Source: an uncultured Muribaculaceae bacterium
GTDB taxonomy: Bacteria; Bacillota_I; Bacilli_A; RF39; UBA660
Assembly (NCBI GenBank): GCA_964398265.1
Contig: CAYNLX010000002.1
Coordinates: 1-33,011 of the forward strand
Length of the DNA: 33,011 nt
Reading direction: 5' to 3'
Below are positions 1,818 to 30,019 of the stretch, in pieces; position 1 is the stretch's first letter; every line of letters starts with the position of its first letter. Under the pieces are notes generated by a model. The model was given only the letters and a program-made list of their open reading frames with translations, made no database searches and had not been told where the DNA came from. Both the position numbers and the translations under genes were made by a program.

Positions 1818-3389
1818 ATGACTAAAAGTGAATTAGAAATAGAATTAAATAGAATTAATAATATAACAAACTTAGATGAAAAAATTTATGAAATAAGAGA
1901 ATTATTATCAGTAAGATTTAATTATAAATCGTTAACGTTGCTTATCGAATTATTAATAAATAGAAATAATGAAGGAGATTTATCTGAAGCAAAGAATTTA
2001 GCAAAAAATGCTTATTATGGATATAATAAAGATTATTATTTGATGTGTTTATCTAAGATTGCAAGAAAAGAAAACAATAACGAAGAAATGATTTATTATT
2101 TAGAATTAGCTATGAATACAAAATGTCGTGCTAATGCTAGTTATTTTTTGGGAAATTATTATCTTGATTTATTCAATAATTATAAAGCTGAATACTACTT
2201 TGAAATATGTTATGAAATTATTAACAAGAAAGATAAATGTATATATAATCTTGCAAAATGTAAATACTTTTTAAAAAAATTTGATGAAGCTTTAAAACTT
2301 TTTGAGGAATATATAGATATTAACGAAAATCAAAATAAAGATAAAGCATACTTATATATTGCAAGAATATTAATAGTTAAAAAAGACTATGAAAAAGCTG
2401 TTTATTATTTAAATTTAATAAAAGATACAAAAATAATGGATTTTGTTAAAGCTGAGCTTGCTAAGGTAGAAGTGGCTAAAGGCAATTATGATTTAGCAAG
2501 AGAACAATTTCTAGATATTTCAGAAAAAAATAGTAGTAAAGATTTTGCATCATATCAAATTGCTCGTAGTTATCTATTAGAAAATAAATATGATGAAGCC
2601 CTTATTATTTTAGAAAAATTAAGAAATTCTAAGGTTAGAAAATACGCTTTAATGGATCTTGCTAAAATATATAAAATTAAAAAGAATTATGAACTAGAAA
2701 AAGATTGTTATCAAGAAATATTAAAAAATGGATATGATAAATATGCACTATTTGAATTAGCAAGAGTTAGCATTGAAGAGAATGATTCTGATTTTGCAAA
2801 AAAACTATTAAATCAAATCCTTGATAATGAATATGATGAATTTACACTATTTAGATTAAGTAAAATTTATTATGATGAAGGCAAATATGAACTTGCTAAA
2901 GAATCTTTATTAAAAATAAAGAAAAAGAATAAATATGTCTTATTAGAATTAGGTAAAACAGAAATATGTTTAAAAAATATAAATGAAGCAATAAATTATT
3001 TTAATTTAATATTAAACGAACAATATGATGAATACGCAATATTGGAACTTGCAAAAACTTATAAACTGATTAACAAAGAAAAAGAGAGCTTAGACTTGTT
3101 TAATTCGCTATTATTAACTAACAGCACTTTTTTTGCTCTATATTACCTAGCTAAAATAGATATAGAAAAAAAGGATTACATAAATGCTTTAAAAAAATTG
3201 TTATTAATAGATAAAAATGGTGATCTATCTAAACTTGATTTTACACAATTATACTTATATATATCAAAATGCCAATATGAATTAAATAATATAGAATTAT
3301 CTGATTATTACTACAAAAAGCATTTAGAGTATAATCATTATGATGACTATTCAGAAAACAGAAAAAGTATTATACTATCTTTAATGTAA
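1818..3389 (+). CDS. Tetratricopeptide (TPR/Sel1-like) repeat protein, cytoplasmic, unknown function
   Basis: 523 aa built almost entirely of helical repeats of about 34-36 aa. The signature recurs as (Y/F)DE(Y/F)(A/T)(I/L)(L/F)ELAK.Y, for example YDKYALFELARV, YDEFTLFRLSKIY and YDEYAILELAKTY. No signal peptide or catalytic motif seen. Confidence 0.85.
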   Translation: MTKSELEIELNRINNITNLDEKIYEIRELLSVRFNYKSLTLLIELLINRNNEGDLSEAKNLAKNAYYGYNKDYYLMCLSKIARKENNNEEMIYYLELAMNTKCRANASYFLGNYYLDLFNNYKAEYYFEICYEIINKKDKCIYNLAKCKYFLKKFDEALKLFEEYIDINENQNKDKAYLYIARILIVKKDYEKAVYYLNLIKDTKIMDFVKAELAKVEVAKGNYDLAREQFLDISEKNSSKDFASYQIARSYLLENKYDEALIILEKLRNSKVRKYALMDLAKIYKIKKNYELEKDCYQEILKNGYDKYALFELARVSIEENDSDFAKKLLNQILDNEYDEFTLFRLSKIYYDEGKYELAKESLLKIKKKNKYVLLELGKTEICLKNINEAINYFNLILNEQYDEYAILELAKTYKLINKEKESLDLFNSLLLTNSTFFALYYLAKIDIEKKDYINALKKLLLIDKNGDLSKLDFTQLYLYISKCQYELNNIELSDYYYKKHLEYNHYDDYSENRKSIILSLM

Positions 3390-3407
3390 AATATTTTAAT
3401 ACAAAAG

Positions 3408-3440
3408 TAAAAACCGTTGACAAAAAGCGGTTTTTGTTGT
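3408..3440 (+). terminator. Weak intrinsic terminator after the TPR gene
   Basis: Stem AAAACCG (3410-3416) pairs with CGGTTTT (3428-3434) around an 11-nt loop, followed by TTTTGTTG. The stem is only 7-8 bp and AT-rich, so read-through is likely. Confidence 0.4.
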
Positions 3441-3445
3441 ATTAT
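3417..3445 (+). promoter_or_regulatory. Putative sigma-A promoter for the 3475-6634 gene pair, embedded in the terminator hairpin
   Basis: TTGACA (3417-3422), 17 nt, TATTAT (3440-3445). The AAGGGGGAA RBS and the ATG at 3475 lie downstream. Confidence 0.5.
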
Positions 3446-3474: not shown

Positions 3475-4527
3475 ATGACAGAGGAAGAAAGAAAAATACG
3501 TCAAGAAAAGCTTGACAAATTATTAGCTCTTTACAATGAAGAGGAAGAGGAAAATAACGAGGAAGAAATTATCGCTGTTGAAGAAACAAATGAAGAAGAA
3601 AAAGCAAATGCTTTATCTTTAAGAGAAAAATTACTTTCAATTAGCTGCGGAATAGTATCACTATTATTAATAATGACATCATTATCAACTTGTGGTCGAA
3701 AAAACAATAATTCACATTCAAGTGAAACTAGTATAGTTGAAACTACTGAAGCTATTAATTATTCATTTGATTTAGAAGAAAATATTAAGAAGAATGCAGA
3801 AATAATATTTAATTCTATAGATCAAAGTATAATTACATTTACACTTGAAGACGTTGAAGATACAATTAGATTTTTAAATGGTATTAAAACTAACAAAACC
3901 TATTCTGATATAGAATTATTAGATATGATAGATAATGTTTTATATAATGGAATGGACACATACTATGGTTCTTTAGCTAATACTATTGGGGGTGTAACTC
4001 CTATTAATGAAAATGTTCATTCAATAAATTGGGAATACTTATTTGAAAATAATAGTTTAGAACAAGTTGTTATCTATAAATTTGATTCTATATTAAATCA
4101 AATTGTTGCTAATCAAGGTAATAAAGAAGAATTAAATAAATTAGCAAATGAATTATTAACATTAGAAGTTATGTTATTAGAATCTAAAATAGAAGTAAAT
4201 GGTAAATATTTAAGTATAGATGATTTTAGCGACGGAGCTAAAGCAACATTATATTCAATAATGGATCAAAACGATAGAATATTAAAAGCTATTGGAGGAA
4301 ATAATTTCTCTGTAACTTTAGATATTGTAAATGATGTTGAAGGTACACAAACTGAAACATATTCAGCAAAATATATTATTAATAAAATTAATAAAAAAGA
4401 TTGCGTAGTTTATACTCCAGAAGGAGAAGAAGTTCCTATGGACGATCACGATAATACATTAATTAATTTATTAAAACTTCAAGAATCATTACAAAATAAT
4501 AATACATTAAAATTAACAAATAATTAA
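3475..4527 (+). CDS. Hypothetical single-pass membrane protein with an acidic cytoplasmic N-terminal tail
   Basis: 350 aa with a strong RBS (GGGGGA). The roughly 50-aa Glu-rich N-terminus (EEEEENNEEEIIAVEETNEEEK) precedes one TM helix (ISCGIVSLLLIMTSLS) and a roughly 280-aa extracytoplasmic domain with no motif I recognise. Confidence 0.8.
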   Translation: MTEEERKIRQEKLDKLLALYNEEEEENNEEEIIAVEETNEEEKANALSLREKLLSISCGIVSLLLIMTSLSTCGRKNNNSHSSETSIVETTEAINYSFDLEENIKKNAEIIFNSIDQSIITFTLEDVEDTIRFLNGIKTNKTYSDIELLDMIDNVLYNGMDTYYGSLANTIGGVTPINENVHSINWEYLFENNSLEQVVIYKFDSILNQIVANQGNKEELNKLANELLTLEVMLLESKIEVNGKYLSIDDFSDGAKATLYSIMDQNDRILKAIGGNNFSVTLDIVNDVEGTQTETYSAKYIINKINKKDCVVYTPEGEEVPMDDHDNTLINLLKLQESLQNNNTLKLTNN

Positions 4528-4540
4528 GGGGGGTAAAAAT

Positions 4541-6634
4541 ATGAACGAAATATCATTTAATTGGAAAAATATATTTACAAATTTAATATTATTAATAATA
4601 TTAGTTATAATATTAGCATTTGGTTTTAAAAATAACTTTAGTTTTAATACAAATAGTAACGTATTAATAGACAAAGTATATAACCAAAACATTCAAACAA
4701 TGAAAGATGCTGCTAAAGATTATTTCACTGTTGAAAAACTACCAAGTAATATTGGAGAAACAAAAAAATTATCATTACAAGAAATGTTAAATAAAAAATT
4801 ATTATTAAATTTTACTGATAAAAATAATAAAACATGTAATACAGAGTTTAGCAATGTTGAAGTAACAAAAATAACTGAAACTGAATATCAATTAAAAGTA
4901 ACGCTTGCATGTGGAGAACAAATAGATTACATAGTTGATACTATTGGATGTTATGATACTTGTAAAGATTGCAAAGTTGAAACAAAAACTGAATATCAAT
5001 ACACTAAGACTACTAACGGAACTAAGACTTCTTATAGTTGTCCTGAAGGATACTCATTAAATGGAAAATATTGTTATAAACAATTAGGTTCTTCTATAAA
5101 CGCAACTGCTGTTTATAGTGATGCTAACACAAAAATAACTGAAGCAAAAAAGAAAGATGATGAGTCTTACAAACTTTATACTGATTCTATAGCAAAAACT
5201 GGAGCTACAACATATAAATGTGAAAAAGGAACATTAAATAGTGATAACACTTGTACAATAAAAACAGCTACCACTATTAATGCTACACCTAACTATGCAT
5301 ATAAATGCTCTAATGGTGATTTACAATCAAATAATACTTGCAAAGTTTCTAGTACAACTGCTGCTAACGCTAACTATGCATATAAATGCTCTAATGGTGA
5401 TTTACAATCAAATAATACTTGTAAAGTTTCTAGCACAACTGCTGCTACTGCTAACTATGCATACAGATGTAATGAAGGGTCTTTAGAGGGAACAAAATGT
5501 AAAATATCTAGCACATCTACAGTTAATGCGGAAATATCAAGTTATACTTATGGAAGCTGGTATGCAGTTACTTCTTATAAAAGAACTTCTGCACTTGCAA
5601 CATATAATAATGGAACAGAAAAATTAGTTGATAACGGAACTACTAGAGAATACTCATGTGGTACTCCTACATATTGTCCAACTAAAGTAACTTATTATCA
5701 TTATACATTATATAGAAGAAGCGCTACTGCTAACTATAGTTGTTCTAATGGTACTTTATCTGGAAATTCATGTATAATATCTAGCACATCCTACAATAAT
5801 GCAGAAAAATATATTAGTAATTATTCTTGTTCTAATGGTACTTTATCTGGAAGTAATTGCATAGTAACAACTAACACAGCTGCCACTAAATACATAAAAA
5901 ATTATTCTTGTTCTAATGGTACTTTATCTGGAAGTAATTGTGTAGTAACAACTTATCCAGCTGCTACTAAATATATTAAAAATTATTCTTGTTCTAATGG
6001 TACTTTATCTGGAACAAAATGTAATGTTACTGCTAATAGTAAAGTAACTGCTACAAAAGTAATTGGTGATACAACTTATAGTTGTCCATCTGGTTACAAT
6101 GAAGAAGGAAATGGAACTAATCTTAAATGTTATGTTACAAGAACTAATAATGGTGATTATTATTGTGATAATGCAAATCAAACTTTAAAAGGAAATAAAT
6201 GTTACGAAGAAATTAAATCTGAATTGACAGGATACACTTGTAAAGATGGTTATACATTAGAAGGTAATAAATGTGTTAAAACTTGTACAAAAAAAATAGA
6301 TGCTACTGCATCAACTAAAAGTGTTTCAAATACTTCAACTAAATGGAGTACAGAAAAAACATTAAATGGTTATACTTCTACTGGAAAATATAGAATAGTA
6401 GATGAAAAAGGTAAAGTAATTAAAACTGGTACAGTTGAAGAAGCTACTAAAAAAGAAGATACTGTTGTAGAACAAACTTCGAATGATGATACTAAATTAA
6501 TGACAGTTAATACCAATACTAATACTACTCCTTCTACTATGGAATACATTATGTATGCCATCATAGTAATTGGAGTAATAATAATGGCTTTTGCCTCAAT
6601 AACAATGGTTAGAATAAAAAGATATAATAATTAA
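4541..6634 (+). CDS. Cysteine-paired repeat surface protein with an N-terminal signal-anchor and a C-terminal TM anchor
   Basis: 697 aa, RBS GGGGGG, starting 14 nt after the preceding gene. N-terminal TM is IFTNLILLIILVIILAFGF. C-terminal TM is YIMYAIIVIGVIIMAFASITMV followed by RIKRYNN. In between are 12-13 modules of the form Y.C..G.L....C (for example YSCPEGYSLNGKYC, YKCSNGDLQSNNTC, YSCSNGTLSGSNC, YTCKDGYTLEGNKC) separated by Ser/Thr/Ala-rich linkers. No LPXTG motif. Confidence 0.9.
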   Translation: MNEISFNWKNIFTNLILLIILVIILAFGFKNNFSFNTNSNVLIDKVYNQNIQTMKDAAKDYFTVEKLPSNIGETKKLSLQEMLNKKLLLNFTDKNNKTCNTEFSNVEVTKITETEYQLKVTLACGEQIDYIVDTIGCYDTCKDCKVETKTEYQYTKTTNGTKTSYSCPEGYSLNGKYCYKQLGSSINATAVYSDANTKITEAKKKDDESYKLYTDSIAKTGATTYKCEKGTLNSDNTCTIKTATTINATPNYAYKCSNGDLQSNNTCKVSSTTAANANYAYKCSNGDLQSNNTCKVSSTTAATANYAYRCNEGSLEGTKCKISSTSTVNAEISSYTYGSWYAVTSYKRTSALATYNNGTEKLVDNGTTREYSCGTPTYCPTKVTYYHYTLYRRSATANYSCSNGTLSGNSCIISSTSYNNAEKYISNYSCSNGTLSGSNCIVTTNTAATKYIKNYSCSNGTLSGSNCVVTTYPAATKYIKNYSCSNGTLSGTKCNVTANSKVTATKVIGDTTYSCPSGYNEEGNGTNLKCYVTRTNNGDYYCDNANQTLKGNKCYEEIKSELTGYTCKDGYTLEGNKCVKTCTKKIDATASTKSVSNTSTKWSTEKTLNGYTSTGKYRIVDEKGKVIKTGTVEEATKKEDTVVEQTSNDDTKLMTVNTNTNTTPSTMEYIMYAIIVIGVIIMAFASITMVRIKRYNN
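5210..5533 (+). repeat. In-frame tandem repeat, 4 x 81 bp (27-aa units, NYAYKCSNGDLQSNNTCKVSSTTAA.A type)
   Basis: Units start at 5210, 5291, 5372 and 5453. The two central units differ at 4 of 81 positions by my alignment. The outer units are more diverged but keep the Y.C..G.L....C spacing. Confidence 0.9.
5732..6061 (+). repeat. In-frame tandem repeat, 87 + 3 x 81 bp (NYSCSNGTLSG..C... type)
   Basis: Units start at 5732, 5819, 5900 and 5981. The first 34 nt (AATTATTCTTGTTCTAATGGTACTTTATCTGGAA) are identical in the last three units. Units 5819 and 5900 differ at about 8 of 81 positions. Confidence 0.9.
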
Positions 6635-6636
6635 TT

Positions 6637-6663
6637 AAGCACTAGAAAATCTAGTGCTTTTTT
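6637..6663 (+). terminator. Intrinsic terminator of the 3475-6634 unit
   Basis: AAGCACTAG (6637-6645), loop AAAAT, CTAGTGCTT (6651-6659), then a T-run. It lies 3 nt after the stop codon. Confidence 0.75.
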
Positions 6664-6665
6664 AT

Positions 6666-6687
6666 AAAAAAGATGCTAGTTAGCATC
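6666..6687 (-). terminator. Putative intrinsic terminator at the end of the minus-strand glycan operon
   Basis: Minus strand reads GATGCTAACTAGCATC (6687-6672; 6-7 bp stem containing the TAG stop at 6678-6676) followed by TTTTTT (6671-6666). It converges on the plus-strand terminator. Confidence 0.45.
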
Positions 6688-7152
6688 AATATATTCTTCA
6701 ATTGCTTTTATTATATTTTCAGTGTTTGATTTAAATCTTTTCGGTTTAAATCCTTTTGCTGCTTTTATCACATCTTCTAATTTATTAAAATCCTCTAATT
6801 TTAAAATATAACCCGATTCATAAAAATTATTTAATATTTGTAATTGATGATTATTAGTATGTTCACCATATTTTTTTAATCTCGCAGCCCCAATAATTTT
6901 TTTATTGTATTTTAATCCGGTCATTATAGATCCTACTCCAGCATGAGTTATTATAATATCACATTTTTTTATTAAATCTTCTAAATCACTATTTGATATA
7001 TAATCAAATATTTTCATTCTGTTAGATTTATATTTTGTAAAACCGGCTTGAACTATTATTTCATCTTTAAGATTTGTTTTTTCTATTGCATCTAATAATC
7101 TAGAAAATGGTTTGTCCTGGGTTCCTAATAAAACTAATATCAAAATATCCAC
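6676..7152 (-). CDS. PssE/Cps14G-type glycosyltransferase subunit (Alg13-like, GT28 C-terminal domain)
   Basis: VLLGTQDKPFSRLL near the N-terminus, then IITHAGVGSIMTGLKYNKKII....EHTNNHQLQI, which is characteristic of Cps14G/PssE/Alg13-like proteins. The track start is a GTG at 7152. A TTG at 7143-7141, 4 nt after GGGGTGGA and overlapping the upstream TGA as TTGA, would give the family-typical MILVLLGT N-terminus. Confidence 0.85.
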   Translation of the reverse strand: MDILILVLLGTQDKPFSRLLDAIEKTNLKDEIIVQAGFTKYKSNRMKIFDYISNSDLEDLIKKCDIIITHAGVGSIMTGLKYNKKIIGAARLKKYGEHTNNHQLQILNNFYESGYILKLEDFNKLEDVIKAAKGFKPKRFKSNTENIIKAIEEYIDAN

Positions 7153-7616
7153 CCCTTATATTTTGCTTTTGGATACAATTCAAGCATATTTTTCCATTGA
7201 ACTAAAAATAAATCTGCAAACTTATAAACAATTCTTCCTGTAATTGATTTTGTACTCATATTAGCCATTGTTTCAATAAATATAATTTTAGTACCAAATA
7301 ATTTCCCTATACAACACATTGGACCGGAAGTATGTGCACCAGTTGTAATAATAAATGAAGGTCTTACTTTAATATAAATAAATAAACTCTTAAAACAATT
7401 AAAAAGTAATTTTAATGGATATGTTATCATGTGATCTTTAGTTCCATACATTAAAAAACTAATACGCTTTTTATATTGCTCTTTTAAAAATAAATTGCTC
7501 TTTGTTTTTTCTGTAACAATATAATAATCGTACTTATTAAACATTTTCTTTAGTTGCATCATTTCAGTAAAATGACCGCCTGTACTAGAAATAAACATTA
7601 CTTTCTTTTTTTTCAT
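7140..7616 (-). CDS. PssD/Cps14F-type glycosyltransferase membrane-associated subunit (Alg14-like)
   Basis: 158 aa. FISSTGGHFTEMMQL matches the GGH motif of Alg14/Cps14F. It is immediately upstream of, and overlaps, the Alg13-like partner, as in the split Cps14F/G enzyme. Confidence 0.85.
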   Translation of the reverse strand: MKKKKVMFISSTGGHFTEMMQLKKMFNKYDYYIVTEKTKSNLFLKEQYKKRISFLMYGTKDHMITYPLKLLFNCFKSLFIYIKVRPSFIITTGAHTSGPMCCIGKLFGTKIIFIETMANMSTKSITGRIVYKFADLFLVQWKNMLELYPKAKYKGWIF

Positions 7617-7623
7617 TTTTCAC

Positions 7624-8739
7624 CTATTTCAATAGTTTAAGCCACTGGTTTTTAACTTTTTCGGATAAATATTCTTTTACTTTTTTCTTTGACTTATCTG
7701 AATACTTTTTTAACTCTTTTTTATTATTTAATAATTCTACTATCTTATTTGTCATTTCCTGTTTATCTCTATTCTTGACTAATATACCTGTATTTTTGAG
7801 AAGTTCCTTTGCTCCGGTAGCACTATCAAAAGCAATACAAGGTAATCCATAATTCATAGCCTCAATTAATACTAACCCGAATGATTCAGTAAATGATGTC
7901 ATCACATATAACGATGATTTTAAATACTTTTTTTCTAATTCAGTTTGACCAATAAATCCTAATAAACTTACATTGTTTTTTAAAGCATATTTATCAATTT
8001 GTTCTTCAATTCTGTTTTTTTCAGATCCATCTCCGCATATAGTTAAATGAACATCAGGTATCTCTTTTTTTACTAGATTTATTATTTCTATTAAATCATA
8101 AAAACCTTTTTCTGTTGCTAATCTTCCGACTGTTATTATATTATTGTTGTTTAATTCACTAATAATGCATGAAGATTTATCAATAACATTAGGAATATAA
8201 ATACACTTAGTATTACCTATGCGCTTATTGTAATAATTGTATAATTCTTTTGATATTGCAATATAATAATCAAAACCTTTTAATGATTTAATAACTTTAT
8301 TATTATATTTATCTGAGTCATTACAAGAGTTATGCTCACTAGCAATTTTAATAATACCTTTTCTTAAATATTTATTTATCAATCTGTTATGCTCTATCCT
8401 CGTTGATATTATTATATCGCAATTTACATTTTTTATTGCTTTTTTTATTCTATGCTTTTTTTGGAATAAAATATATATTCTTTTAAAAATTTCCTTTAAT
8501 AATAATAAATACTTTTTTGAATTCAATAATTGTCTAGCAGAATTATCATAAGGGCCAAAAGAAAACAAATAAAAAATTTTTACTTTGTTATCGATGAAAT
8601 ATGCAGGTGTTTTTTTAGTTTTATAAACTGAAATAATCTCAACGTTATAATCGCTTGATAAAATGTTAGCTAACGAAGAAACATACTTTTCTATTCCTCC
8701 ATGACCCAAATGAAGGCAAACAATAACAATTTTTTTCAT
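7624..8739 (-). CDS. Glycosyltransferase family 4 (GT-B, retaining type)
   Basis: 371 aa with VGRLATEKGFYDLIE and a canonical EX7E block (TESFGLVLIEAMNYGLPCIAFD). Its start overlaps the upstream stop as ATGA. Confidence 0.9.
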   Translation of the reverse strand: MKKIVIVCLHLGHGGIEKYVSSLANILSSDYNVEIISVYKTKKTPAYFIDNKVKIFYLFSFGPYDNSARQLLNSKKYLLLLKEIFKRIYILFQKKHRIKKAIKNVNCDIIISTRIEHNRLINKYLRKGIIKIASEHNSCNDSDKYNNKVIKSLKGFDYYIAISKELYNYYNKRIGNTKCIYIPNVIDKSSCIISELNNNNIITVGRLATEKGFYDLIEIINLVKKEIPDVHLTICGDGSEKNRIEEQIDKYALKNNVSLLGFIGQTELEKKYLKSSLYVMTSFTESFGLVLIEAMNYGLPCIAFDSATGAKELLKNTGILVKNRDKQEMTNKIVELLNNKKELKKYSDKSKKKVKEYLSEKVKNQWLKLLK

Positions 8740-9938
8740 TTTCCATCTCCATATAGTGTTATTTCATCCTCAAGTATTTTCTCTAATTCATTCATAAGTT
8801 TTTCTTTTTCAAAATGTTTTTTATAATAATTAAATCCATTTATACCATATTTTTTCCATTTATTAATCATTTTAATCTCTTCCAAAATAAGTTTTGACAT
8901 ACCTTCGGCATCTAATGAATTACAACATACACCGCATTTTGCTTCCTTAATTATATCATTTACTTCTCCACTTGCTGCACCAAAAATCGGCTTTTTTGCA
9001 AGCATATAAGATTGAATTTTTGCAGGAAGCGTATTATTTACTATTTCATTATCGTCCATAGTTATAACAAATGCATCTGCTAATTCATAAAATTTTTCCA
9101 TTTGTTCAACATTATAAAACCCATAAAAAACTACATTACTAAGATTATAGCTTTTTGCCAACTTCATACACTTTTTTTTATTTAATCCATCTCCAATAAT
9201 ATGAAAAATAATGTTTTTCTGTTTTTTTAAATAATTTGCACATTCTATTATGGTTTCTACACTTTGTGCTGGGCCAATATTACCAGCAAATACTAAATCT
9301 ATCTTATCATTGTTTGTTGTTGATTCAATACAGTAAACATCTTCAGCATATGATGGCCAATAATTTATGCTTTTTTTTATTTTAAGTACTTCATTAAAAT
9401 ATCTTTCAAACGACTTAGAACTTATAGTAATCTTATCTGCTCCATTATAAATATACTTACTATATTTCAATGCTATTTTATAAATTAAACTATTCTTTTT
9501 TATCCCACCTGCTGTTAAACTTATTGGCCACTGATCTAAACAATGAATAATGAAAGGAATTTTCTGTCTCTTTTTCACAATTATTCCAGCATGAGCCATG
9601 GATATTGGAGATAATTGAAAACAATATACTATATCAAACTCTTGATTAAGAAATAGAGCTTTCATACAAGATGTTATTAGAAAAGAAACATAGTTTAATC
9701 CCATTTTTAAAGTACTATTACCTCTGCCAACTATTCCACAGCGAATTATTTTAATTCCGTTATACGTTTCTTTTCTTTTTCTAAAAAACCTATAATCTTT
9801 TTGAATAACACCGCTTGGATAATTTGGCAATCCAGTTAAAACAGTTACACTATTTCCTTTTTTTAACAAATCTAAAGCTATATCATTTATTCTAAATTGT
9901 TCCGGATAAAAATGTTGACATATTATTAATATTCTCAT
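8736..9938 (-). CDS. WcaI-like glycosyltransferase (GT4 / GT-B)
   Basis: 400 aa. The N-terminus MRILIICQHFYPEQFRINDIALDLLKKGNSVTVLTGLPNYP is typical of WcaI-type GT-B enzymes. The C-terminal half has LPAKIQSYMLAKKPIFG. Confidence 0.8.
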   Translation of the reverse strand: MRILIICQHFYPEQFRINDIALDLLKKGNSVTVLTGLPNYPSGVIQKDYRFFRKRKETYNGIKIIRCGIVGRGNSTLKMGLNYVSFLITSCMKALFLNQEFDIVYCFQLSPISMAHAGIIVKKRQKIPFIIHCLDQWPISLTAGGIKKNSLIYKIALKYSKYIYNGADKITISSKSFERYFNEVLKIKKSINYWPSYAEDVYCIESTTNNDKIDLVFAGNIGPAQSVETIIECANYLKKQKNIIFHIIGDGLNKKKCMKLAKSYNLSNVVFYGFYNVEQMEKFYELADAFVITMDDNEIVNNTLPAKIQSYMLAKKPIFGAASGEVNDIIKEAKCGVCCNSLDAEGMSKLILEEIKMINKWKKYGINGFNYYKKHFEKEKLMNELEKILEDEITLYGDGK

Positions 9939-9945
9939 ATAAACC

Positions 9946-10278
9946 TCATTTATTACTTTTTAATATAGATATTTCCTGAATTAATTTTCTAATCCTTTTC
10001 CCTTGCTTTGATACAATAACCGTTAGTGATAACAACATAAAAATTGTCATAGCAAACAAAAATGCAAAAATAAGATTAGAGCCTGTTTTTATTCCAACAA
10101 TTTTTGTTATAAAAGATAAAAAGCCAGGAATAACGGTGAATAACAATAATAATCCAATTATAAAAAACCATAAAATTGAATACTTAATAGATATTTGATC
10201 TTTTTTTAGCATCAATAATACCACTACGGCCAACACTATTAATAATGTAAAACTAATTATAATTAACTTAATTGGCAT
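9946..10278 (-). CDS. DUF2304 small membrane protein (GacJ-like partner of polyprenyl-phosphate sugar synthases)
   Basis: 110 aa with three to four hydrophobic helices and the family-typical ISIKYSILWFFIIGLLLLF...SLTVIVSKQGKRIRKLIQEISILK. Its start overlaps the GT2 stop (TAATG). Confidence 0.75.
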   Translation of the reverse strand: MPIKLIIISFTLLIVLAVVVLLMLKKDQISIKYSILWFFIIGLLLLFTVIPGFLSFITKIVGIKTGSNLIFAFLFAMTIFMLLSLTVIVSKQGKRIRKLIQEISILKSNK

Positions 10279-10976
10279 TATTTTTCCCTCCTTATATATA
10301 TTATCAATATCGACAATACAACATTAATCATATAATAAATGTTTTTCCATGTTCTTATCGAAGATATTCCACTTTTTCTTTCTTTCATAATAACAGGTAC
10401 TTCGGTAACAGTTTTTTGTTTCCTAAGTAAAATGGTAGTAGTAACTGGTTCTGGATATTCTACAGGATATTCATTTTTAAAAATTTCTATTACTTTTTTG
10501 TTACACGCTCTAAGTCCAGATGTTGTATCATATATTTTAAAACCAGTAGTTAGTTTAATAAAGAAAGAAATTATTCTAATTCCTATACGTCTTGAAAAAG
10601 ATGATTTAAATCCCTCGTTATTATCTACAAATCTCGACCCTATTACCATATCTGCTTTATTTAATAAAATTGGTTTAATTAAGCTCTCAATCGAATTTAT
10701 ATCATGCTGTCCATCTCCATCAAATTGAATAGCAATATCATAATCGTGATCATAAGCATACTTATATCCAGTTTGAACAGCTCCACCTATTCCTAAATTA
10801 CTTACCAAACTAATATAGTTATAATTATTTATTTTACATATTTTTTCAGTATTATCTGTTGAACAATCATTAATAATTATATAATCATATTTATTATTCT
10901 TTTTTATTTCTTCAATCACCAATTTTATATTATCTTCTTCATTGTATGCAGGTATAATTAAAAGTATTTTTTTCAT
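10278..10976 (-). CDS. GT2 glycosyltransferase, polyprenyl-phosphate sugar synthase type (GtrB/CsbB/GacI-like)
   Basis: 232 aa with IIPAYNEEDNI, INDCSTDNT and FDGDGQHD motifs. Small GT-A size, with a short hydrophobic C-terminus (MINVVLSILIIYI). Coupled to the DUF2304 gene. Confidence 0.85.
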   Translation of the reverse strand: MKKILLIIPAYNEEDNIKLVIEEIKKNNKYDYIIINDCSTDNTEKICKINNYNYISLVSNLGIGGAVQTGYKYAYDHDYDIAIQFDGDGQHDINSIESLIKPILLNKADMVIGSRFVDNNEGFKSSFSRRIGIRIISFFIKLTTGFKIYDTTSGLRACNKKVIEIFKNEYPVEYPEPVTTTILLRKQKTVTEVPVIMKERKSGISSIRTWKNIYYMINVVLSILIIYIRREK

Positions 10977-10981
10977 ATTCG

Positions 10982-12856
10982 TTACTCCTCCAATTCAAAA
11001 TGAAATTTAGACTTTGTATTTTTAACAATTCTATATATTTGATCTGAATTAAGTTTTGTATTAAACATTGAAGAGTATTTATTTTCAAAATAATCATCAA
11101 TATTTAGTAAGATTATATAATCATAATCTTTATTTACCAAATTCCAAAAATCTTCCACTTCATAATCACTTGACCATTGATCAGACTCATAACATATATT
11201 TCCGATGCTCCATGGAAAATTATTTTTATTAGTCTTAATAGGAGTTAATTCATATCTCATTACCCAAAAATCAAATCCGTCGCTACATCTCGAAACTATA
11301 AAAACTGAATCTTCCTTTTTTACAATTTTTTTCACTTTTTCCCCGAGATTTACATATCTTTCCCTAATATTTTTTGAAGATATCCATGATTGTGGAGCTA
11401 ATAATGATATTGACAAATAAGATATCGGCTGTAAAGAAAAGAATACTACTAAAAATAATACACAAATACATTTTTTCGTATTAATATTTTTTATAATACT
11501 TATCACCATCAACAATAATAGTCCTATAATATATGGAGAAAAATACCTATTAAATGAAGCAAGTCTTAATGCTTCGTATTCTGAAAAAATTGAAATATAA
11601 CATGAAAACACAATTATACTATAACCCAAAAAACCAAGTAAAGATGATATTATACTACATAATATAAACCTTTTTTGATCCTTTTTGCTTTTGCTATATA
11701 TGTATCCCATTGTAAAAATAAAAATAATTAAAAAAGCTGCAATAGAAATATTAATAAAGGAATCTACCATTCTTCCATTAAATATTTCTCTTATAAAATT
11801 ACACAACACTTTTAAACGATAATCACCGGTATTAAACATAAAAATCTTTTTATAACTTGAAATCACTAAAGAAAAAGTATTAGACGATATTCCGCTTTTT
11901 TCTCCATACAATGATAAAAAGAATATCCAACTATATCTAATAAGTAATGATGGCAATAATATTAAAATATTAACTAAAATTTTTTTTACATACATAGATT
12001 TTTTCTCTAGCTTTTCAGAAAACAAAACCATAAATGACATTATCAAGAATACTAATAGCGAAAGCACGAATCCAAAGTCTTTTATTATTATTAGTGCAGA
12101 TAGAATAGTTGATAAAAACAAATAATCAAAAAAGCTTTTTTTCTTTATACAAAAGCAATAGTATAATGCTACGAAAAAATAAATACCAAGTGTAGCATCA
12201 ACATACAAGGATGAATAAGCATTCCAAATTACAAGTAATGGTAAGAAAAAAATAATTAAAACTGAAAAAATAGTTTTTATAGAAAAAACTTCTTTAAGCT
12301 TATTTACATTAGTTAATAAAATAAATAATGGAGATATAGTAAAAATACTCATCGAAAGAAACAATACTGATTCTTTATATTCTCCAAATAGTTTTAAGCA
12401 ATAATATTGAAAAATAGAAGTTCCAGACAAATAACTCTTTGCTACAATAGTAGAATCCAGGCCCGTTCCCAAATTATTTAACATAAACATATTCTTTGCG
12501 GATAAAGCCCAATGAGAAAATTCATCCCAAACGGTAGCCATTTGAGAAAAAGAGGCCCATGAGAATAATAAAAAAACAACAATAATAATAAACAATGATG
12601 GCCTAATTATCAATTGTAATAATTGCCTATTTTTTATTATTTTAACCATCATTATAATGAATGAAATAATATTTATACCTATCAAAAAATGGAAACCAAT
12701 TAAAAGATTATTAAAAGCTATACCAAATAAATATAAAAATAAAGCTTGAAATACTATTGAAAGAATAAATGTTAATTCTATTTTTTTATTAAACATAATA
12801 GAAATAAAACTACTCATATTAATTAATAATAATAATAATAATATATATCCCATCAT
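10982..12856 (-). CDS. Polytopic membrane protein, putative GT-C fold glycosyltransferase (GacL/YfhO-like role), paralog of 24525-26432
   Basis: 624 aa, more than 12 hydrophobic segments by eye and a roughly 130-aa soluble C-terminus. The acidic loop motif VWDEFSHW (D111-E112, nt 12526-12521) follows the third helix. It is alignable along its length with the 635-aa protein. Function is inferred from context (GT2 + DUF2304 directly upstream). Confidence 0.6.
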   Translation of the reverse strand: MMGYILLLLLLINMSSFISIMFNKKIELTFILSIVFQALFLYLFGIAFNNLLIGFHFLIGINIISFIIMMVKIIKNRQLLQLIIRPSLFIIIVVFLLFSWASFSQMATVWDEFSHWALSAKNMFMLNNLGTGLDSTIVAKSYLSGTSIFQYYCLKLFGEYKESVLFLSMSIFTISPLFILLTNVNKLKEVFSIKTIFSVLIIFFLPLLVIWNAYSSLYVDATLGIYFFVALYYCFCIKKKSFFDYLFLSTILSALIIIKDFGFVLSLLVFLIMSFMVLFSEKLEKKSMYVKKILVNILILLPSLLIRYSWIFFLSLYGEKSGISSNTFSLVISSYKKIFMFNTGDYRLKVLCNFIREIFNGRMVDSFINISIAAFLIIFIFTMGYIYSKSKKDQKRFILCSIISSLLGFLGYSIIVFSCYISIFSEYEALRLASFNRYFSPYIIGLLLLMVISIIKNINTKKCICVLFLVVFFSLQPISYLSISLLAPQSWISSKNIRERYVNLGEKVKKIVKKEDSVFIVSRCSDGFDFWVMRYELTPIKTNKNNFPWSIGNICYESDQWSSDYEVEDFWNLVNKDYDYIILLNIDDYFENKYSSMFNTKLNSDQIYRIVKNTKSKFHFELEE

Positions 12857-12858
12857 TT

Positions 12859-14016
12859 CTATTTCTCCTTAAATTCTTTCTTTTTTTTCTCGCAATATTT
12901 CTTCATGACCGTCAAATTATTATAGTCATAATAATATATCAATTCTTGATAAAAAGCTTCTACGCTTCCTTCCAATTCAATTTTTCTTTCATCAGAAATA
13001 TCATTTATAATACTCATTAATTTATTGTCAGTCATCTTCCTTACATTACTATTTGTTTTAGATACTTGACTATCATGAACTCTTATTGAAGAACCAAAGA
13101 CTGGAATATTAATAAAATTATAACCTTTTTTCATCATTCTATACCACATATCTTTTTCTTGAGATATTCTATCATTTTCATCAAAAAATCCACATTCATC
13201 AAAAACGTTTTTAGGAATCATTACAGATCCTCCATTAATATCTCCATATAGAATACTATATTCTGTCTTATAAAAAGATAATAAATAATTAATTGTTTTC
13301 TTATTAATAAAGTTTGTCTCGTTAATTAAAACATTATTATTAGAATTGATAATATCATATAGCATAAAGCCAATACTCTTTTTCCCAAAATTTTTAGATA
13401 AAAATTTTACTTGTTCTTCTAAAAAATTGCTTTTATAAAGATCGTCATGACTCAACCAAACAAAATACTCACCATTCATCATTCGAATACCATAATTAAT
13501 CGCTGATGATACACCACCATTTTCTTTTTCATAATAACTAATAAGATTAGGGAACTTTTTTTGATATGATTTTGCAATTTTTTTAGTTTGTCCATTGTCG
13601 TTACTACCATCGTTTACTATTATTATTTCAAAATTTCTATAGCTTTGAGATAAGGCACTTTCAATAGCAAACTTTATATAATTAGTAGCATTGTATGCGG
13701 GTATAACAATAGATATTTTTGGATTAACTTTATTATTTTCCTTCACATTGTCATATATCGCCTTATTCTCCAAAAAAACTTGTTTATTAATTCTACAAAA
13801 TTCATATGAAACCTGTTTTTTGTTATTTAACAATATTTCTTTAAATACTAATTCGAATTTATTATCATGGACATCTATTGCCTTATATATATCATTAAAT
13901 TGACTTGATAATTTTTTTTCTATTATATCTGTTGATATTTCATCATAACTTGGGTAACCAATAATTTTTAAAAAACACTTTCTAACAAATTGTTTCAATT
14001 TTTTAAAACTTCTCAT
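12859..14016 (-). CDS. GT2 glycosyltransferase with a roughly 95-aa N-terminal extension
   Basis: 385 aa with ISIVIPAYNATNYIKFAIESALSQSYRNFEIIIVNDGSNDNG...WLSHDD. Close paralog of the first domain of the next gene upstream. Confidence 0.85.
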   Translation of the reverse strand: MRSFKKLKQFVRKCFLKIIGYPSYDEISTDIIEKKLSSQFNDIYKAIDVHDNKFELVFKEILLNNKKQVSYEFCRINKQVFLENKAIYDNVKENNKVNPKISIVIPAYNATNYIKFAIESALSQSYRNFEIIIVNDGSNDNGQTKKIAKSYQKKFPNLISYYEKENGGVSSAINYGIRMMNGEYFVWLSHDDLYKSNFLEEQVKFLSKNFGKKSIGFMLYDIINSNNNVLINETNFINKKTINYLLSFYKTEYSILYGDINGGSVMIPKNVFDECGFFDENDRISQEKDMWYRMMKKGYNFINIPVFGSSIRVHDSQVSKTNSNVRKMTDNKLMSIINDISDERKIELEGSVEAFYQELIYYYDYNNLTVMKKYCEKKKKEFKEK

Positions 14017-15811
14017 TTATTTTTTTCACTACCTTTTTAATAATTCTTTTTATTGTAAAAATTGCACCATATCTCTTATATGATTCTTTTGTAACTAAAT
14101 ATAATCTTTTAATGCGTGGGATTCTTCGATTATTTTCATCCAAAGAATAAGATTGATCCGTAATTTTTAATATAGTTTTATGCTTGTTTTCTCTTACCAT
14201 TCGAATATATTCCTCTAATAAGTAAGATATTTCCATATCATATGAACTATATTCTTTATCATTCATAATATATTTAATTATCGTTTTATATCCTAAGATT
14301 TGTTTATCAATATCATATGCGGAACTACTATCTAATACATTTACGACCGAAAGCGGCTCATCAATTCCAAATAATTCTTCATTTCTAACTAGTTCAAGCC
14401 AAAAGCAAGTATCTTCTCCTATAATTAATTCTGGATTAAAACGAAAATGATTTTTTTCTAAATAATCCCTTAAAATCATAACAGTAGGAGTTGCAATACC
14501 ACAACTATATAGCATTTGAGGAATTACTATTCCCGTTTGTCTTCCACTTGGAATATATCTTGTTTCATTAAAGCCAACCCTTTTATATGATGTATGACTA
14601 ATTTTTGCACATTGTAATTCCATATCATATAATTGATCATATAATTTATTAACTACAAAATAATCATCAGAATCCAAAAAAGCAATATATTTTCCTTTTG
14701 CCATATCCATGCCGACATTTCTAGCATTGGCTGCTCCGCCATTTTTATTTAAATTAATTAACTTTATTCTAGAATTTTTATTTATTACTTTTTCCAATTT
14801 TTTCAAAGAATCCGTTGAGCAATCATTAATTAATAACAACTCCCAATTATTATGAGTTTGATTAATAACAGATTCAATAGCATTAATGGTTACATCGATT
14901 CGATTAAAAAATGGAATAACAACACTTACTTTTATTTTGTCCAAGCCTTTTTTAGTTTTTTCTACCAATTTTGAACATTCATTAACACAATATTTTTCTG
15001 CTTCATCATATGGTGTGTCGGACAAAAAGATTGCCATTCTTGAGTAGAAATTAAATTCGCTTCCTTCAAGTCTTATTCTTGCTTCTTTCGAAGTTTCTTT
15101 TATTAAGTTTGTCCATAAAACATTTCCTTCTGATTTAACTTTTTCATTTACCACAGTAACTTGACCTGAATGTGTTCTTGATTGAGCTACTATTTTAGGC
15201 ATATGAAAAAAATCAAAATAATTTTTCATTTCGTTCCATTTAACATAATCTTGAACACATCTTAAATTTTCATCAAATAATCCACATTTTTCAAAAGCTT
15301 TTTTTGGAATAAGCAAAGTTATACCATTAATTGTTCCTCTTAATAATGCGTATTCCGGCTTTTTCAACAGCATCTCATGATCCTTAATACATTCTGATAT
15401 TATTTTTCCTTTACAATCAATTAATTCATAATCTGAATAAACTATCGCATCTGGATTTTTTATTTCTTTAAGATAATTAATTTGATCTTCTATTTTATTA
15501 GGCAAATAAATGTCATCATGACTAAGCCAAGAAAAATAACTTCCCTTCATTTGTTTAATTGCTAAATTTAGTGCAGTAGATACTCCACCATTTTCTTTTT
15601 CAAAATACTTTACTGTTTTTGGATAATTCTTAACATATGATTGAGCTATTTTAGAGGTTTTTCCGTTATCATTACTTCCATCATTTACTATTATTATTTC
15701 TATATTCTTATATGTTTGTTCAAGCGCACTTTCAACAGCTTCTTTTAAATAATTTGAACCATTATACACAGGTATTATTATTGAAACCAAATATTGATTT
15801 TTATTATTCAT
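14003..15811 (-). CDS. Bifunctional glycosyltransferase with two GT2 (GT-A) domains; candidate chain-extending polymerase
   Basis: 602 aa. Domain 1 is VSIIIPVYNGSNYL...IIVNDGSNDNG...WLSHDD. Domain 2 is VSVVIPFFNRIDV...LINDCSTDS...FLDSDD. RBS GGGAGGAAG. Confidence 0.9.
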   Translation of the reverse strand: MNNKNQYLVSIIIPVYNGSNYLKEAVESALEQTYKNIEIIIVNDGSNDNGKTSKIAQSYVKNYPKTVKYFEKENGGVSTALNLAIKQMKGSYFSWLSHDDIYLPNKIEDQINYLKEIKNPDAIVYSDYELIDCKGKIISECIKDHEMLLKKPEYALLRGTINGITLLIPKKAFEKCGLFDENLRCVQDYVKWNEMKNYFDFFHMPKIVAQSRTHSGQVTVVNEKVKSEGNVLWTNLIKETSKEARIRLEGSEFNFYSRMAIFLSDTPYDEAEKYCVNECSKLVEKTKKGLDKIKVSVVIPFFNRIDVTINAIESVINQTHNNWELLLINDCSTDSLKKLEKVINKNSRIKLINLNKNGGAANARNVGMDMAKGKYIAFLDSDDYFVVNKLYDQLYDMELQCAKISHTSYKRVGFNETRYIPSGRQTGIVIPQMLYSCGIATPTVMILRDYLEKNHFRFNPELIIGEDTCFWLELVRNEELFGIDEPLSVVNVLDSSSAYDIDKQILGYKTIIKYIMNDKEYSSYDMEISYLLEEYIRMVRENKHKTILKITDQSYSLDENNRRIPRIKRLYLVTKESYKRYGAIFTIKRIIKKVVKKINEKF

Positions 15812-15855
15812 TAGATACTTCCTCCCGATAATACTATTATAACTTAATTGTCAAT

Positions 15856-15883
15856 AAAAAAAAAGAGAAAACACTATTTTCTC
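15856..15883 (-). terminator. Intrinsic terminator (or attenuating hairpin) inside the minus-strand gene array, after capG
   Basis: Minus strand reads GAGAAAA (15883-15877), loop TAGTG (contains the capG TAG stop), TTTTCTC (15871-15865), then nine T (15864-15856). Confidence 0.6.
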
Positions 15884-16995
15884 CATGTCCTATGATTCAC
15901 TATATTATAATAGCTTTGTATAATTTTAACCACTTTTTCACTTACATTTGATGATTTATAATCATTAACAGGATTCTCTTTATTTGGATCATATGAATTA
16001 ACCGCTAATTCTATTGAAGATTCAATATCTCTACAATTAGTTCCACCTAATACTACTGTTCCTGAATCTAATGCTTCGGGTCTTTCTGTACTGTTTCTTA
16101 AAGACACTGCTGGAAAATTTAATATAGCACATTCTTCTGCAATAGTACCGCTATCAGATAATACGCAAAAAGCATTTTTTTGTAAACAGTTATAATCAAA
16201 AAAATCTAAAGGTTCTAAATTTACTATTAAATCATTCAATTTAATATTATTTTCTTTTAATCTTTTTGCTGTTCTAGGATGAGTAGAAAAAATTATTGGC
16301 ATTTTATATTTTTCTGCAACACTATTTAATGATTCCATTAACTCCTTTAAAACTTCTTTGTTATCTACATTTTCTTCACGATGAGAGCTTACAACAAAGT
16401 ATTTATTTTTTTCTATATTAAGCTTTGAAAGAATACTTGAAGCATCAATACTATCTATGTTTTTATTAATAACTTCATTCATAGGAGATCCGGTTACATA
16501 TAAGAAATCATTTGTTACGCCTTCGTTTATCAAATATTGTCTTGCATTTTCAGAATAAGCTAAATTAATATCGCTAATGTGATCTACAACTCGCCTATTA
16601 ATTTCCTCAGGAACATTGAAATCAAAACATCTATTTCCAGCTTCCATATGAAAGATAGGAGTTTTTAGTCTTTTTGCTGAATATGCAGATAAACAACTAT
16701 TTGTATCGCCTAATACTAATAGACCATCTGGATTTTCCTTTTGAATAACTTCATATGTTTTTGCTATTATATTACCAACAGTCTCGCCTAAATCTTTCCC
16801 TGGAACATTTAGATAGTATTTTGGTTCTTTTAATTTAAAATTTTCAAAAAACACATCATTTAAAGTATGATCATAATTTTGCCCAGTATGAACTAAAACT
16901 AGCTCAAAATATTTATCAATAGCTTTAATTACTTCTGATAACCTAATAATTTCTGGACGCGTTCCAACTACTACCATTATTTTTAACTTCTTCAT
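15874..16995 (-). CDS. capG: UDP-2-acetamido-2,6-dideoxy-L-talose 2-epimerase (CapG/FnlC; non-hydrolysing UDP-GlcNAc 2-epimerase family)
   Basis: 373 aa that match S. aureus CapG throughout as I recall that sequence: VGTRPEIIRLS, HTGQNYD, LGDTNS, HMEAGNRCFD.NVPEEINR, STHPR and SDSGT..EE. Confidence 0.92.
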   Translation of the reverse strand: MKKLKIMVVVGTRPEIIRLSEVIKAIDKYFELVLVHTGQNYDHTLNDVFFENFKLKEPKYYLNVPGKDLGETVGNIIAKTYEVIQKENPDGLLVLGDTNSCLSAYSAKRLKTPIFHMEAGNRCFDFNVPEEINRRVVDHISDINLAYSENARQYLINEGVTNDFLYVTGSPMNEVINKNIDSIDASSILSKLNIEKNKYFVVSSHREENVDNKEVLKELMESLNSVAEKYKMPIIFSTHPRTAKRLKENNIKLNDLIVNLEPLDFFDYNCLQKNAFCVLSDSGTIAEECAILNFPAVSLRNSTERPEALDSGTVVLGGTNCRDIESSIELAVNSYDPNKENPVNDYKSSNVSEKVVKIIQSYYNIVNHRTWRK

Positions 16996-19150: not shown

Positions 19151-19167
19151 CTTTTCATATCCTCCTA

Positions 19168-19899: not shown

Positions 19900-19911
19900 T
19901 TTTACCCTCAC

Positions 19912-20697: not shown

Positions 20698-20789
20698 GCT
20701 ATTCTCCTCACTTTATTAGTTTAACATATTTTGTAAAAAAAAGAAAATAATATAAACATTATTAATATTAAATATGTATTATTATTTTA

Positions 20790-29993: not shown

Positions 29994-30019
29994 AAAAAGA
30001 TAGAAAATTCTATCTTTTT
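29994..30019. terminator. AT-rich bidirectional hairpin between convergent genes
   Basis: AAAAAGATAGA (29994-30004), loop AAAT, TCTATCTTTTT (30009-30019). T-runs on both strands. It overlaps the stop of the minus-strand gene at 30010. Confidence 0.45.

Follow-up and report, generated by a model that had tools for sequence, protein, structure and literature searches.

A candidate cysteine-hairpin surface stalk with a linked partner gene, from an unnamed protein family of uncultured RF39-like Bacilli

The stretch of DNA analyzed here (the window; 33,011 nucleotides, positions 1 to 33,011 of contig CAYNLX010000002.1) carries, at 4541..6634 on the plus strand, a gene for a 697-residue protein with arrays of cysteine hairpins. 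Its best reading, to which we assign a probability of about 0.55, is that of a type II (N-in, C-out) membrane-anchored surface protein, the beta-rich cysteine-hairpin stalk of an unnamed family of Bacilli, acting with a partner protein encoded directly upstream. In sequence comparisons, the family is defined by a conserved N-terminal domain at amino acids (aa) 40-144, together with an anchor helix and a C-terminal KWS motif; the original prediction, made from the DNA alone, had overlooked both this domain and the KWS motif, as well as the gene for the partner. The family has neither a Pfam or NCBIfam model nor a structural neighbor, and full-text literature searches turned up no paper describing it.

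Results

Cysteine pairs and hairpin arrays

The reading frame runs from ATG to TAA, as originally described, and stays open for 2,094 nt in surrounding DNA of approximately 24% GC. Seven reading frames of the window stop at TGA; therefore genetic code 11 applies, and an alternative code for the window is ruled out. Cysteine accounts for 4.59% of the protein (32 residues), against 1.33% in the other 27 window reading frames, and 26 of the 32 are arranged as 13 sequential pairs (167/178, 227/238, 256/267, 283/294, 310/320, 373/379, 401/411, 430/440, 457/467, 484/494, 515/530, 542/554, and 567/578). Twelve of these pairs belong to hairpin modules, most of which read Y-x-C-x-x-G-x-L-x(3-4)-C or a slightly extended version of this motif; pair 373/379 is a short C-x5-C within a conserved insert and is distinct from the modules. 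All module peptides quoted in the original prediction were found in the sequence, and its statement that nearly every cysteine is paired is accurate for these 26 residues and overstated with regard to the other six, five of which lie in the N-terminal domain (C99, C124, C137, C141, C144), the sixth being C582.

When the ectodomain was shuffled 20,000 times, gaps of 10-12 residues between adjacent cysteines, of which the protein has 12, occurred 2.9 times on average and 11 times at most; [YF]-x-C-x-x-G motifs numbered 11 against 0.17 expected, and no shuffle reached as high. Family-wide, 1,226 module instances yield the consensus T-x-Y-[TS]-C-P-x-G-[YG]-T-L-[NS]-G-[TS]-K-C, next to a shorter module class that reads Y-x-C-x-x-G-T-L-S-G-T-K-C.

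As delimited by the cysteine pairs and the AlphaFold2 pattern described below, the modules form a first array of five (aa 147-320; 4979..5500) and a second array of seven that closes with the lone C582 (aa 399-582; 5735..6286). Between them lies a conserved central beta insert (aa 321-398; 5501..5734) with a 'YGSW' motif and C373-x5-C379, recognized by its alignment consensus and predicted local distance difference test (pLDDT) values of 86-95. Two groups of modules are recent 81-nt tandem duplications, 93-94% identical: one, at 5281..5463, has 2.3 copies (94% identical), each unit corresponding to one 27-aa module, and the other, located by repeat detection at 5819..6014, has 2.4 copies (93% identical). 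Because short-read contigs of independent metagenomes break inside both of these 81-nt arrays, their copy number is not secure; the locus itself is real, and several independent metagenomes from bioreactors and wastewater contain it in near-identical form, at a depth of about 5x. Two 151-nt contigs covering 4533-4830 in one wastewater metatranscriptome are a weak sign that the gene is transcribed. Two short reading frames lie within the gene in other frames, at 5280-5486 (plus strand, 68 aa) and 6370-6564 (minus strand, 64 aa); both are most likely spurious, and the first is repetitive owing to its overlap with the 81-nt array.

Conserved domains and variation in the family

A homolog search returned 185 relatives, the closest 47% identical. 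The N-terminal domain with its five cysteines (4658..4972) was delimited by alignments; among 1.84 billion proteins, its profile matched 1,132 cluster representatives with E<=1e-3, of which 701 also passed E<=1e-10. It begins at residue 30-70, after a hydrophobic helix, in nearly all of 257 members, and 208 of 241 members have exactly five cysteines in it: the invariant C99 and C124, followed by a C-x3-C-x2-4-C cluster (C137/C141/C144). The cysteine number of this domain is odd, and C582 stands alone in the 697-aa protein; judged from the sequence, these residues could take part in an inter-chain disulfide or a metal site. Modeled alone, the domain reached a pLDDT of 85.5 and a predicted template modeling (pTM) score of 0.76, and a Foldseek search of this model against the PDB gave nothing below E 0.1. 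A pilin or pseudopilin fold, suggested by the helix-plus-sheet layout and the pattern 'L.EM......F.D..G..C', was dismissed: no pilin appeared in the Foldseek top 50, and a prepilin-peptidase site (G/[FM]-x-x-x-E) is not present in the protein.

The C-terminal family motif (aa 598-631, 'STKWSTEKTLNGYTSTGKYR'; 6332..6433) marks, in the alignment, the end point of most relatives. Its core in the alignment is Y-x-Y-K-W-S-x4-L-x-G-[WY]-x-x-T-G-K-T-R (aa 598-618), and the more permissive form Y-x-[YK]-W-S-x(4-9)-G-[WY]-x-x-T-G-K, at aa 600-618 in the 697-aa protein, occurs in 107 of the 120 relatives listed. The central beta insert, with 'YG.W', is the third part conserved across the family; it also bears a likeness to part of the globular region in paralogs with five cysteines. 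With its anchor helix, its five-cysteine domain at approximately aa 40-140 and its KWS motif, the 697-aa protein has all the hallmarks of a family member.

The space between these conserved parts is variable. Cysteine counts range from 5 to 58 across relatives, which shows variation in module number, a point that the original prediction had proposed to survey among homologs; the module copy number within the two 81-nt arrays of the 697-aa gene is insecure across metagenomes. The count is odd (5 + 2n) in 96 of the 107 relatives with the C-terminal motif, most commonly 31, 35, 39, or 43, and therefore cysteines outside the N-terminal domain are gained and lost in pairs. Members with only five cysteines have, in the stalk position, Ser/Asn/Thr-rich low-complexity sequence, Big_2 domains, or a Pro/Thr-rich linker followed by Flg_new, the Listeria-Bacteroides repeat; further members carry LysM or BspA-type leucine-rich repeat (LRR_5) domains. 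At locus L051, from a 'Tenericutes' metagenome-assembled genome (MAG), two genes stand in a row (3882-5639 and 5839-7692), and the upstream one starts with the family helix and the N-domain motif 'NRIFNENLLDMK'; therefore tandem paralogs exist.

All genome records with the N-terminal domain are MAGs, labeled Bacilli, Candidatus Coprovivens, Tenericutes, Mollicutes, Erysipelotrichaceae, or Muribaculaceae, and the scan yielded 55 distinct loci, one per MAG record. Judged from these records, the family appears so far to be restricted to uncultured small-genome Bacilli (Coprovivens/RF39-like), Coprovivens being placed in the GTDB order RF39 (PMC8035907). About a dozen MAGs with a low-GC Bacilli-type locus (L004, L006, L009, and others) were deposited as 'uncultured Muribaculaceae bacterium'; this label is odd given that their gene content and neighbors match the Bacilli-labeled loci, and it may be a mislabel. 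A phage or mobile origin was rejected, since no relative of the N-terminal domain was found in 2.9 million viral contigs and the Coprovivens-type loci L001 and L003 adjoin pheST and rplQ-rpoA.

Predicted structure and resemblance to known modules

The 697-aa protein was modeled with AlphaFold2 from a 54-sequence alignment (mean pLDDT 78). The ectodomain is predicted to be all-beta, with 66% of residues 147-631 in strands; helices are chiefly confined to the two hydrophobic ends (aa 8-32 and aa 666-696) and to aa 39-61. A repeated pattern recurs at 11 of the 13 cysteine pairs: a strand ending at Tyr-x before the first cysteine, a loop of 4-5 residues, a 3-residue strand, a 2-residue turn, and then a long strand that begins at the second cysteine. 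In the model, the pattern has the same geometry as the C5-C6 loop of EGF. The Ser/Thr/Ala/Asn-rich segments that the original prediction had taken for linkers are predicted to form long beta-strands and not flexible connections.

Pfam and NCBIfam gave no match above threshold for the 697-aa protein; consistent with the original prediction, no LPXTG motif, wall-binding repeat or enzymatic domain was found. The cEGF model (PF12662) aligned with aa 166-178 at 15.4 bits (cutoff 26.6; E 0.017) and was the commonest Pfam match in the relatives, of which 13 of 54 matched at E<=0.01 (best E 7e-10). Other matches among the 54 relatives were the PBCV1_P7 'disulphide-bonded subdomain' (PF25636; 10 relatives, best E 2.4e-5), Sushi (PF00084; four relatives, best E 3.6e-7), and EGF_Tme5 (PF09064; four relatives, best E 4.8e-5). 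The resemblance to EGF hairpins noted originally is evident at the level of the motif, in the consensus, in the cEGF matches of relatives and in the predicted strand pattern; the modules are not EGF domains, and the 697-aa protein itself stays below the Pfam threshold. The name TraN, attached by JGI to relative P0018, finds no counterpart among the Pfam matches of the 697-aa protein or the 54 relatives.

A PDB sequence search with the single protein gave no match. The profile of 54 relatives matched the complement receptors CR2 (E 4e-18) and CR1 (E 3e-11), in alignments that rest on the repeated strand-turn motif Y-x-C-x-x-G-Y-x-L-x-G...C and not on the 60-aa, four-cysteine Sushi domain. A fold relative for the whole protein was sought with Foldseek against the PDB and viral structures and had to be discarded, as the matches were meaningless (long beta-rich proteins with TM-scores near 0.05).

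Membrane anchoring and surface location

By hydropathy and AlphaFold2, the protein has a hydrophobic helix at each terminus and a basic tail at its C-terminal end, in agreement with the original prediction. The N-terminal helix (aa 6-35 by hydropathy, 8-32 in the model; 4556..4645) has a hydrophobic stretch of approximately 25-30 residues that looks anchor-like; inspection of its sequence revealed no lipobox, A-x-A site or prepilin motif, and the helix is tentatively read as an uncleaved signal anchor. The region after the N-terminal domain is placed outside the cell because paralogs fill it with extracellular, wall-spanning or adhesin-type elements; on this sequence evidence, the hairpin arrays would occupy a spacer or stalk position. 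The surface location proposed originally gains support from the same paralogs, with their Big_2, Flg_new, and LysM domains, and from two relatives with sortase-type signals.

Matters differ at the C-terminal end. The original prediction had described the protein as doubly anchored, and as a family trait this does not hold, since most of the 120 relatives listed end at KWS...G[WY]..TGK without a second helix. A hydrophobic segment after the KWS motif was found in only eight of these 120 (P0001-P0004, P0049, P0063, P0068, and P0083), the 697-aa protein included, and the segments inspected in this subgroup carry a basic or charged tail. In the 697-aa protein, a low-complexity linker (aa 632-664, pLDDT <50; 6434..6532) leads to this subgroup-specific addition (aa 665-697; 6533..6631), which consists of a second hydrophobic segment (aa 665-693 by hydropathy) and the tail RIKRYNN and is laid out like a sorting signal that lacks the motif. 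From its distribution, the second anchor appears to be a trait of a small subgroup; a sorting signal may have been its origin or may still be its function. The linker is length-polymorphic, with a 6-nt deletion at position 6515 in one bioreactor metagenome; its NTNTNT stretch is encoded by a hexanucleotide repeat, TAATAC, in 3.3 copies (6508-6527).

The partner gene

A 350-aa partner gene (3475..4527, plus strand) stops 13 nt before the start of the 697-aa gene. It encodes an acidic, cytoplasmic N-terminus, a single transmembrane helix (aa 52-74) and an ectodomain without an assigned fold. A consensus scan placed a promoter-like site, TTGACA-17-TATTAT, at 3417..3445 on the plus strand, where it shares sequence with a terminator-like hairpin (3406-3438) at the end of the preceding TPR gene; this separate gene, just upstream of the operon, encodes a 523-aa TPR protein (1818-3389). 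Ribosome-binding sites precede both genes of the pair (GGGGG before the ATG at 3475, GGGGGG before the gene at 4541), and a bidirectional terminator-like hairpin with a 10-bp stem and a T-run on both strands (6637..6659) separates the 697-aa gene from convergent glycosyltransferase genes. Because of the promoter-like site, the 13-nt gap, a ribosome-binding site for each gene and the shared terminator, the two genes look like one transcription unit.

A search with the window copy of the partner retrieved only itself, and the partner family was assembled from neighboring genes; against the resulting profile, the window gene scored E 3e-61. Counting the window, 24 loci have a partner homolog directly upstream in the same orientation, and all complete target genes there are cysteine-rich, and the partner is absent from all nine loci whose family gene has only five cysteines. 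The common layout is a cytoplasmic N-terminus, often with an acidic stretch, one transmembrane helix, and an ectodomain without a known family, in which one cysteine is near-invariant (C310 in the window partner). A J-type domain makes up the N-terminus of most relatives, as judged by Pfam DnaJ matches of up to 46.8 bits and by a profile match to PDB J-domains at E 2e-11; at L001, L003, L004, and L029, this domain is followed by the acidic stretch, the transmembrane helix and the ectodomain. The window partner has no J-like domain.

Neighboring polysaccharide genes

Downstream of the terminator, a long co-directional block of polysaccharide genes occupies 6676-24405 on the minus strand. It includes an Alg13/Alg14-like split glycosyltransferase, GT4 and GT2 glycosyltransferases, a DUF2304 protein, a UDP-GlcNAc 2-epimerase, two sugar dehydratase/epimerase genes, an ABC-2 permease with its ATPase, and a cytidylyltransferase; three large reading frames in the block (10982-12856, 20790-22403, and 22403-23659) have no Pfam match. 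From its gene content, the block looks like an ABC-transporter-dependent pathway for a wall polysaccharide or a teichoic-acid-like polymer. Beyond it, a GT2 glycosyltransferase domain fused to C-terminal TPR repeats is encoded on the minus strand (30010-31101).

The original prediction had proposed that the adjacent glycosylation machinery might O-glycosylate the protein. This link finds no support: the glycosyltransferase genes converge on the 697-aa gene from the other strand, behind the bidirectional terminator, and the proposed sites lie in predicted strands. A connection between these genes and the stalk protein was rejected on the same arrangement, on the fit of the gene content to a wall-polysaccharide pathway, and on the observation that, apart from the closest syntenic relative (L002), no locus retains the neighborhood; at L001 and L003, both of Coprovivens type, pheST takes the place of the glycosyltransferase genes.

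Discussion

A proposed stalk and its partner

In the proposed arrangement, the N-terminal helix would keep the protein in the membrane, and the conserved five-cysteine domain of approximately 100 aa would adjoin the membrane surface. From there, the two arrays of approximately 27-aa modules, each a cEGF-like, cysteine-closed short hairpin with long strands, would build an elongated beta-rich stalk, interrupted by the conserved beta insert and capped by the KWS...G[WY]..TGK motif. The hairpin arrays would be the spacer element of this branch of the family, standing in for the Ser/Thr/Pro linkers, Flg_new or Big_2 domains of paralogs, and would grow and shrink through tandem duplication. Each cysteine pair would most likely form one intramodule disulfide that stiffens the stalk, and the co-transcribed single-pass partner would most likely assemble with the stalk protein or help it mature. 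In the small subgroup to which the 697-aa protein belongs, the additional linker and C-terminal helix would tether the distal end as well. Any adhesive function of such a stalk is conjectural. Of this picture, sequence analysis establishes the anatomy, the membership of the family, the link of the two genes in an operon and the motif statistics; the topology, the disulfides, and the roles of stalk and partner are inferences.

Several observations weigh against this arrangement. The evidence for every family member consists of sequence and prediction, and the AlphaFold2 model of the whole protein has a pTM of 0.29, at which the overall shape of the protein is not established. The mean net charge is nearly the same on the two sides of the N-terminal helix (+0.20 before it, +0.22 after it) and does not discriminate between topologies, and a stiff rod with both ends attached would pose a geometric difficulty. 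In a few cysteine-rich loci, the upstream gene is not recognized by the partner profile. The HPD tripeptide, which J-domains need in order to stimulate Hsp70, is kept in only one of 20 partner J-like domains, so that a DnaK-dependent role is doubtful; as the window copy lacks the J-like domain altogether, a canonical DnaK co-chaperone was rejected, and on sequence grounds the partner is read as a putative assembly or docking partner, and not as a proven co-chaperone. Finally, no thiol-disulfide oxidoreductase gene was found in the 33-kb window, and the habitats concerned, the gut for the MAGs with homologs and bioreactors and wastewater for the metagenomes with the window sequence, are probably anoxic for the most part.

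Alternative explanations

The last two points bear directly on the cysteines, which it is possible could stay reduced as thiols under such anoxic conditions. An array of reduced or metal-bound cysteine pairs, held together by its beta-sheet network and not by disulfides, is a somewhat unlikely alternative to which these habitats and the missing Dsb-like gene nevertheless lend some weight. The strand-turn motif by itself does not dictate a bond either: in Sushi domains, the two cysteines of Y-x-C-x-x-G-Y-x-L-x-G...C are not bonded to each other. Moreover, aerobic Firmicutes are reported to exclude cysteine from exported proteins, and not to oxidize it (Daniels et al.; PMC2823432); given this exclusion, the high cysteine content of an exported Bacillota protein is notable, and the original remark that such a protein is unusual for a Gram-positive stands. 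The counter-evidence lies in the modules. Both cysteines are strictly conserved in all 1,226 of them and are gained or lost pairwise, a pattern typical of structural disulfides; the predicted hairpin matches the EGF C5-C6 loop; C-x9-11-C is not the usual spacing of a metal knuckle; and a published catalog covers putative Dsb-like enzymes of anaerobic clostridia (PMC12453122). Parity and predicted geometry, the whole basis for disulfide bonding, make it plausible, and one intramodule disulfide per pair is the most likely state. An artefact of assembly or annotation, with no such protein behind the repeat pattern, could draw on the contig breaks within both 81-nt arrays, where the copy number may be wrong; it is effectively refuted by the long open frame in DNA of 24% GC, by 185 homologs of like architecture, and by near-identical sequences in independent metagenomes.

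Two further alternatives concern the ends and the purpose of the protein. The C-terminal segment could be a degenerate or non-canonical sorting signal, cleaved by a sortase-type enzyme that attaches the distal end of the protein to peptidoglycan, or a relic of such a signal, instead of a permanent anchor. Low-complexity linker, hydrophobic stretch and basic tail reproduce the tripartite layout of sorting signals, and an LPXTG-family tail is weakly matched in NCBIfam (E 0.005). In the distant relatives P0063 and P0068, the motifs SPKTG and SPHTG directly precede a similar hydrophobic stretch; (S/P)PxTG is the motif of Clostridioides difficile SrtB, which makes these two sequences sortase-B-type sorting signals. 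The corresponding place in the 697-aa protein reads '...NTTPSTMEY...' and offers only TPSTM, neither LPXTG nor (S/P)PXTG, and P0002-P0004, the relatives nearest to it, lack any P-x-T-G-like motif; nor is a sortase encoded among the genes of the 33-kb window. RF39 genomes are reported to retain srtA/B, most have predicted peptidoglycan, and sortase loss is reported for RFN20 and ML615J-28, not RF39 (PMC10868615); these reports would count for a sorting signal only if the source organism of the window belongs to RF39. We consider a sorting signal in the 697-aa protein unlikely. Even less probable is that partner and stalk protein form an inward-looking scaffold for envelope biogenesis or the cell cycle (division, wall organization, sporulation). 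The loci L001 and L003 sit amid the housekeeping genes pheST and rplQ-rpoA, each of the 55 distinct loci comes from a different MAG record, the cytoplasmic J-like domain of the partner suggests communication across the membrane, and an unusual mode of sporulation is predicted for RF39 (PMC10868615). Set against these points, module number and middle region vary widely between close relatives, the paralogs carry adhesin-type domains (Big_2, Flg_new, LRR_5) typical of outward-facing surface proteins, and no division or sporulation family was matched in Pfam or NCBIfam.

Implications

All knowledge of the uncultured RF39-like Bacilli comes from metagenomes, and their surface organization and cell contact are little understood. 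A family of more than 1,100 sequence clusters can now be defined, in which the anchor domain is recognizable, the stalk position is modular, and a partner gene is linked; its cysteine-hairpin subfamily is a test case for numerous extracellular structural disulfides in a Bacillota lineage, and its compact two-cysteine beta-hairpin module has either evolved independently of the eukaryotic EGF/Sushi repertoire or was borrowed from it. A bolder and rather improbable extension is that the two genes constitute a system of their own: a disulfide-stapled beta-fiber would be assembled on anaerobic, genome-reduced RF39-like Bacilli by a membrane protein that bears a J-like domain. The odd fifth cysteine of the N-terminal domain and the single conserved cysteine of the partner ectodomain might then form an inter-chain link. 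If true, such a system would imply an unrecognized route of extracytoplasmic oxidative folding in this lineage, and the fiber could be the organism's main device for attachment to other cells or to a host.

Comparison with known systems

At the level of the module, the closest likeness is to cEGF (PF12662), with its Y-x-C-x-x-G-[YF]-x-L-x(3-5)-C motif and a short two-stranded hairpin closed by two cysteines; the 1,226-module consensus and the AlphaFold2 pattern reproduce this C-x-x-G-[YF]-x-L...C hairpin, the C5-C6 subdomain of EGF. Unlike EGF-like domains, which have a six-cysteine core (C1-C3, C2-C4, C5-C6), the modules contain exactly two cysteines, 9-11 residues apart, lack the N-terminal EGF subdomain and the calcium-binding site, are connected by long beta-strands, and occur in a bacterium. 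Sushi/CCP domains (PF00084) share the strand-turn motif, in matches whose E-values are inflated by repetition; they comprise approximately 60 aa with four cysteines bonded 1-3 and 2-4 and a conserved tryptophan, whereas the modules measure approximately 27 aa with two cysteines, the whole 697-aa protein has three tryptophans, and Pfam finds no Sushi domain in it. The P7 protein of PBCV-1 (PF25636) likewise uses a small cysteine-closed hairpin as a structural staple; it is a minor capsid protein of a giant virus, without an array or a membrane anchor, and the 697-aa protein itself is not matched by this model.

For the partner, membrane J-proteins such as DjlA of E. coli and TopJ of Mycoplasma pneumoniae offer a precedent, as they tether a J-type domain at the membrane in the manner of the partner relatives. 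TopJ, which has an acidic region after its J-domain, is required for a surface adhesin to become functional. The partner relatives differ from both in combining an N-terminal J-like domain with one transmembrane helix and a large ectodomain, and in the loss of HPD from 19 of 20 sequences.

As a whole, the protein is of a known kind, the repeat-built Gram-positive surface stalk. In SasG and Aap with their G5-E repeats, and in Rib and SHIRT proteins, tandem beta-rich modules project a distal part from the cell and change in copy number via tandem duplication, as is proposed here. These rods are exported with a cleaved signal peptide, are attached to the wall by a C-terminal LPXTG anchor, and are free of cysteine, with larger modules; the protein described here has an N-terminal helix as its anchor, a conserved membrane-proximal domain, and cysteine-stapled modules. 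Its novelty lies in the anchor domain, the two-cysteine module, and the partner gene.

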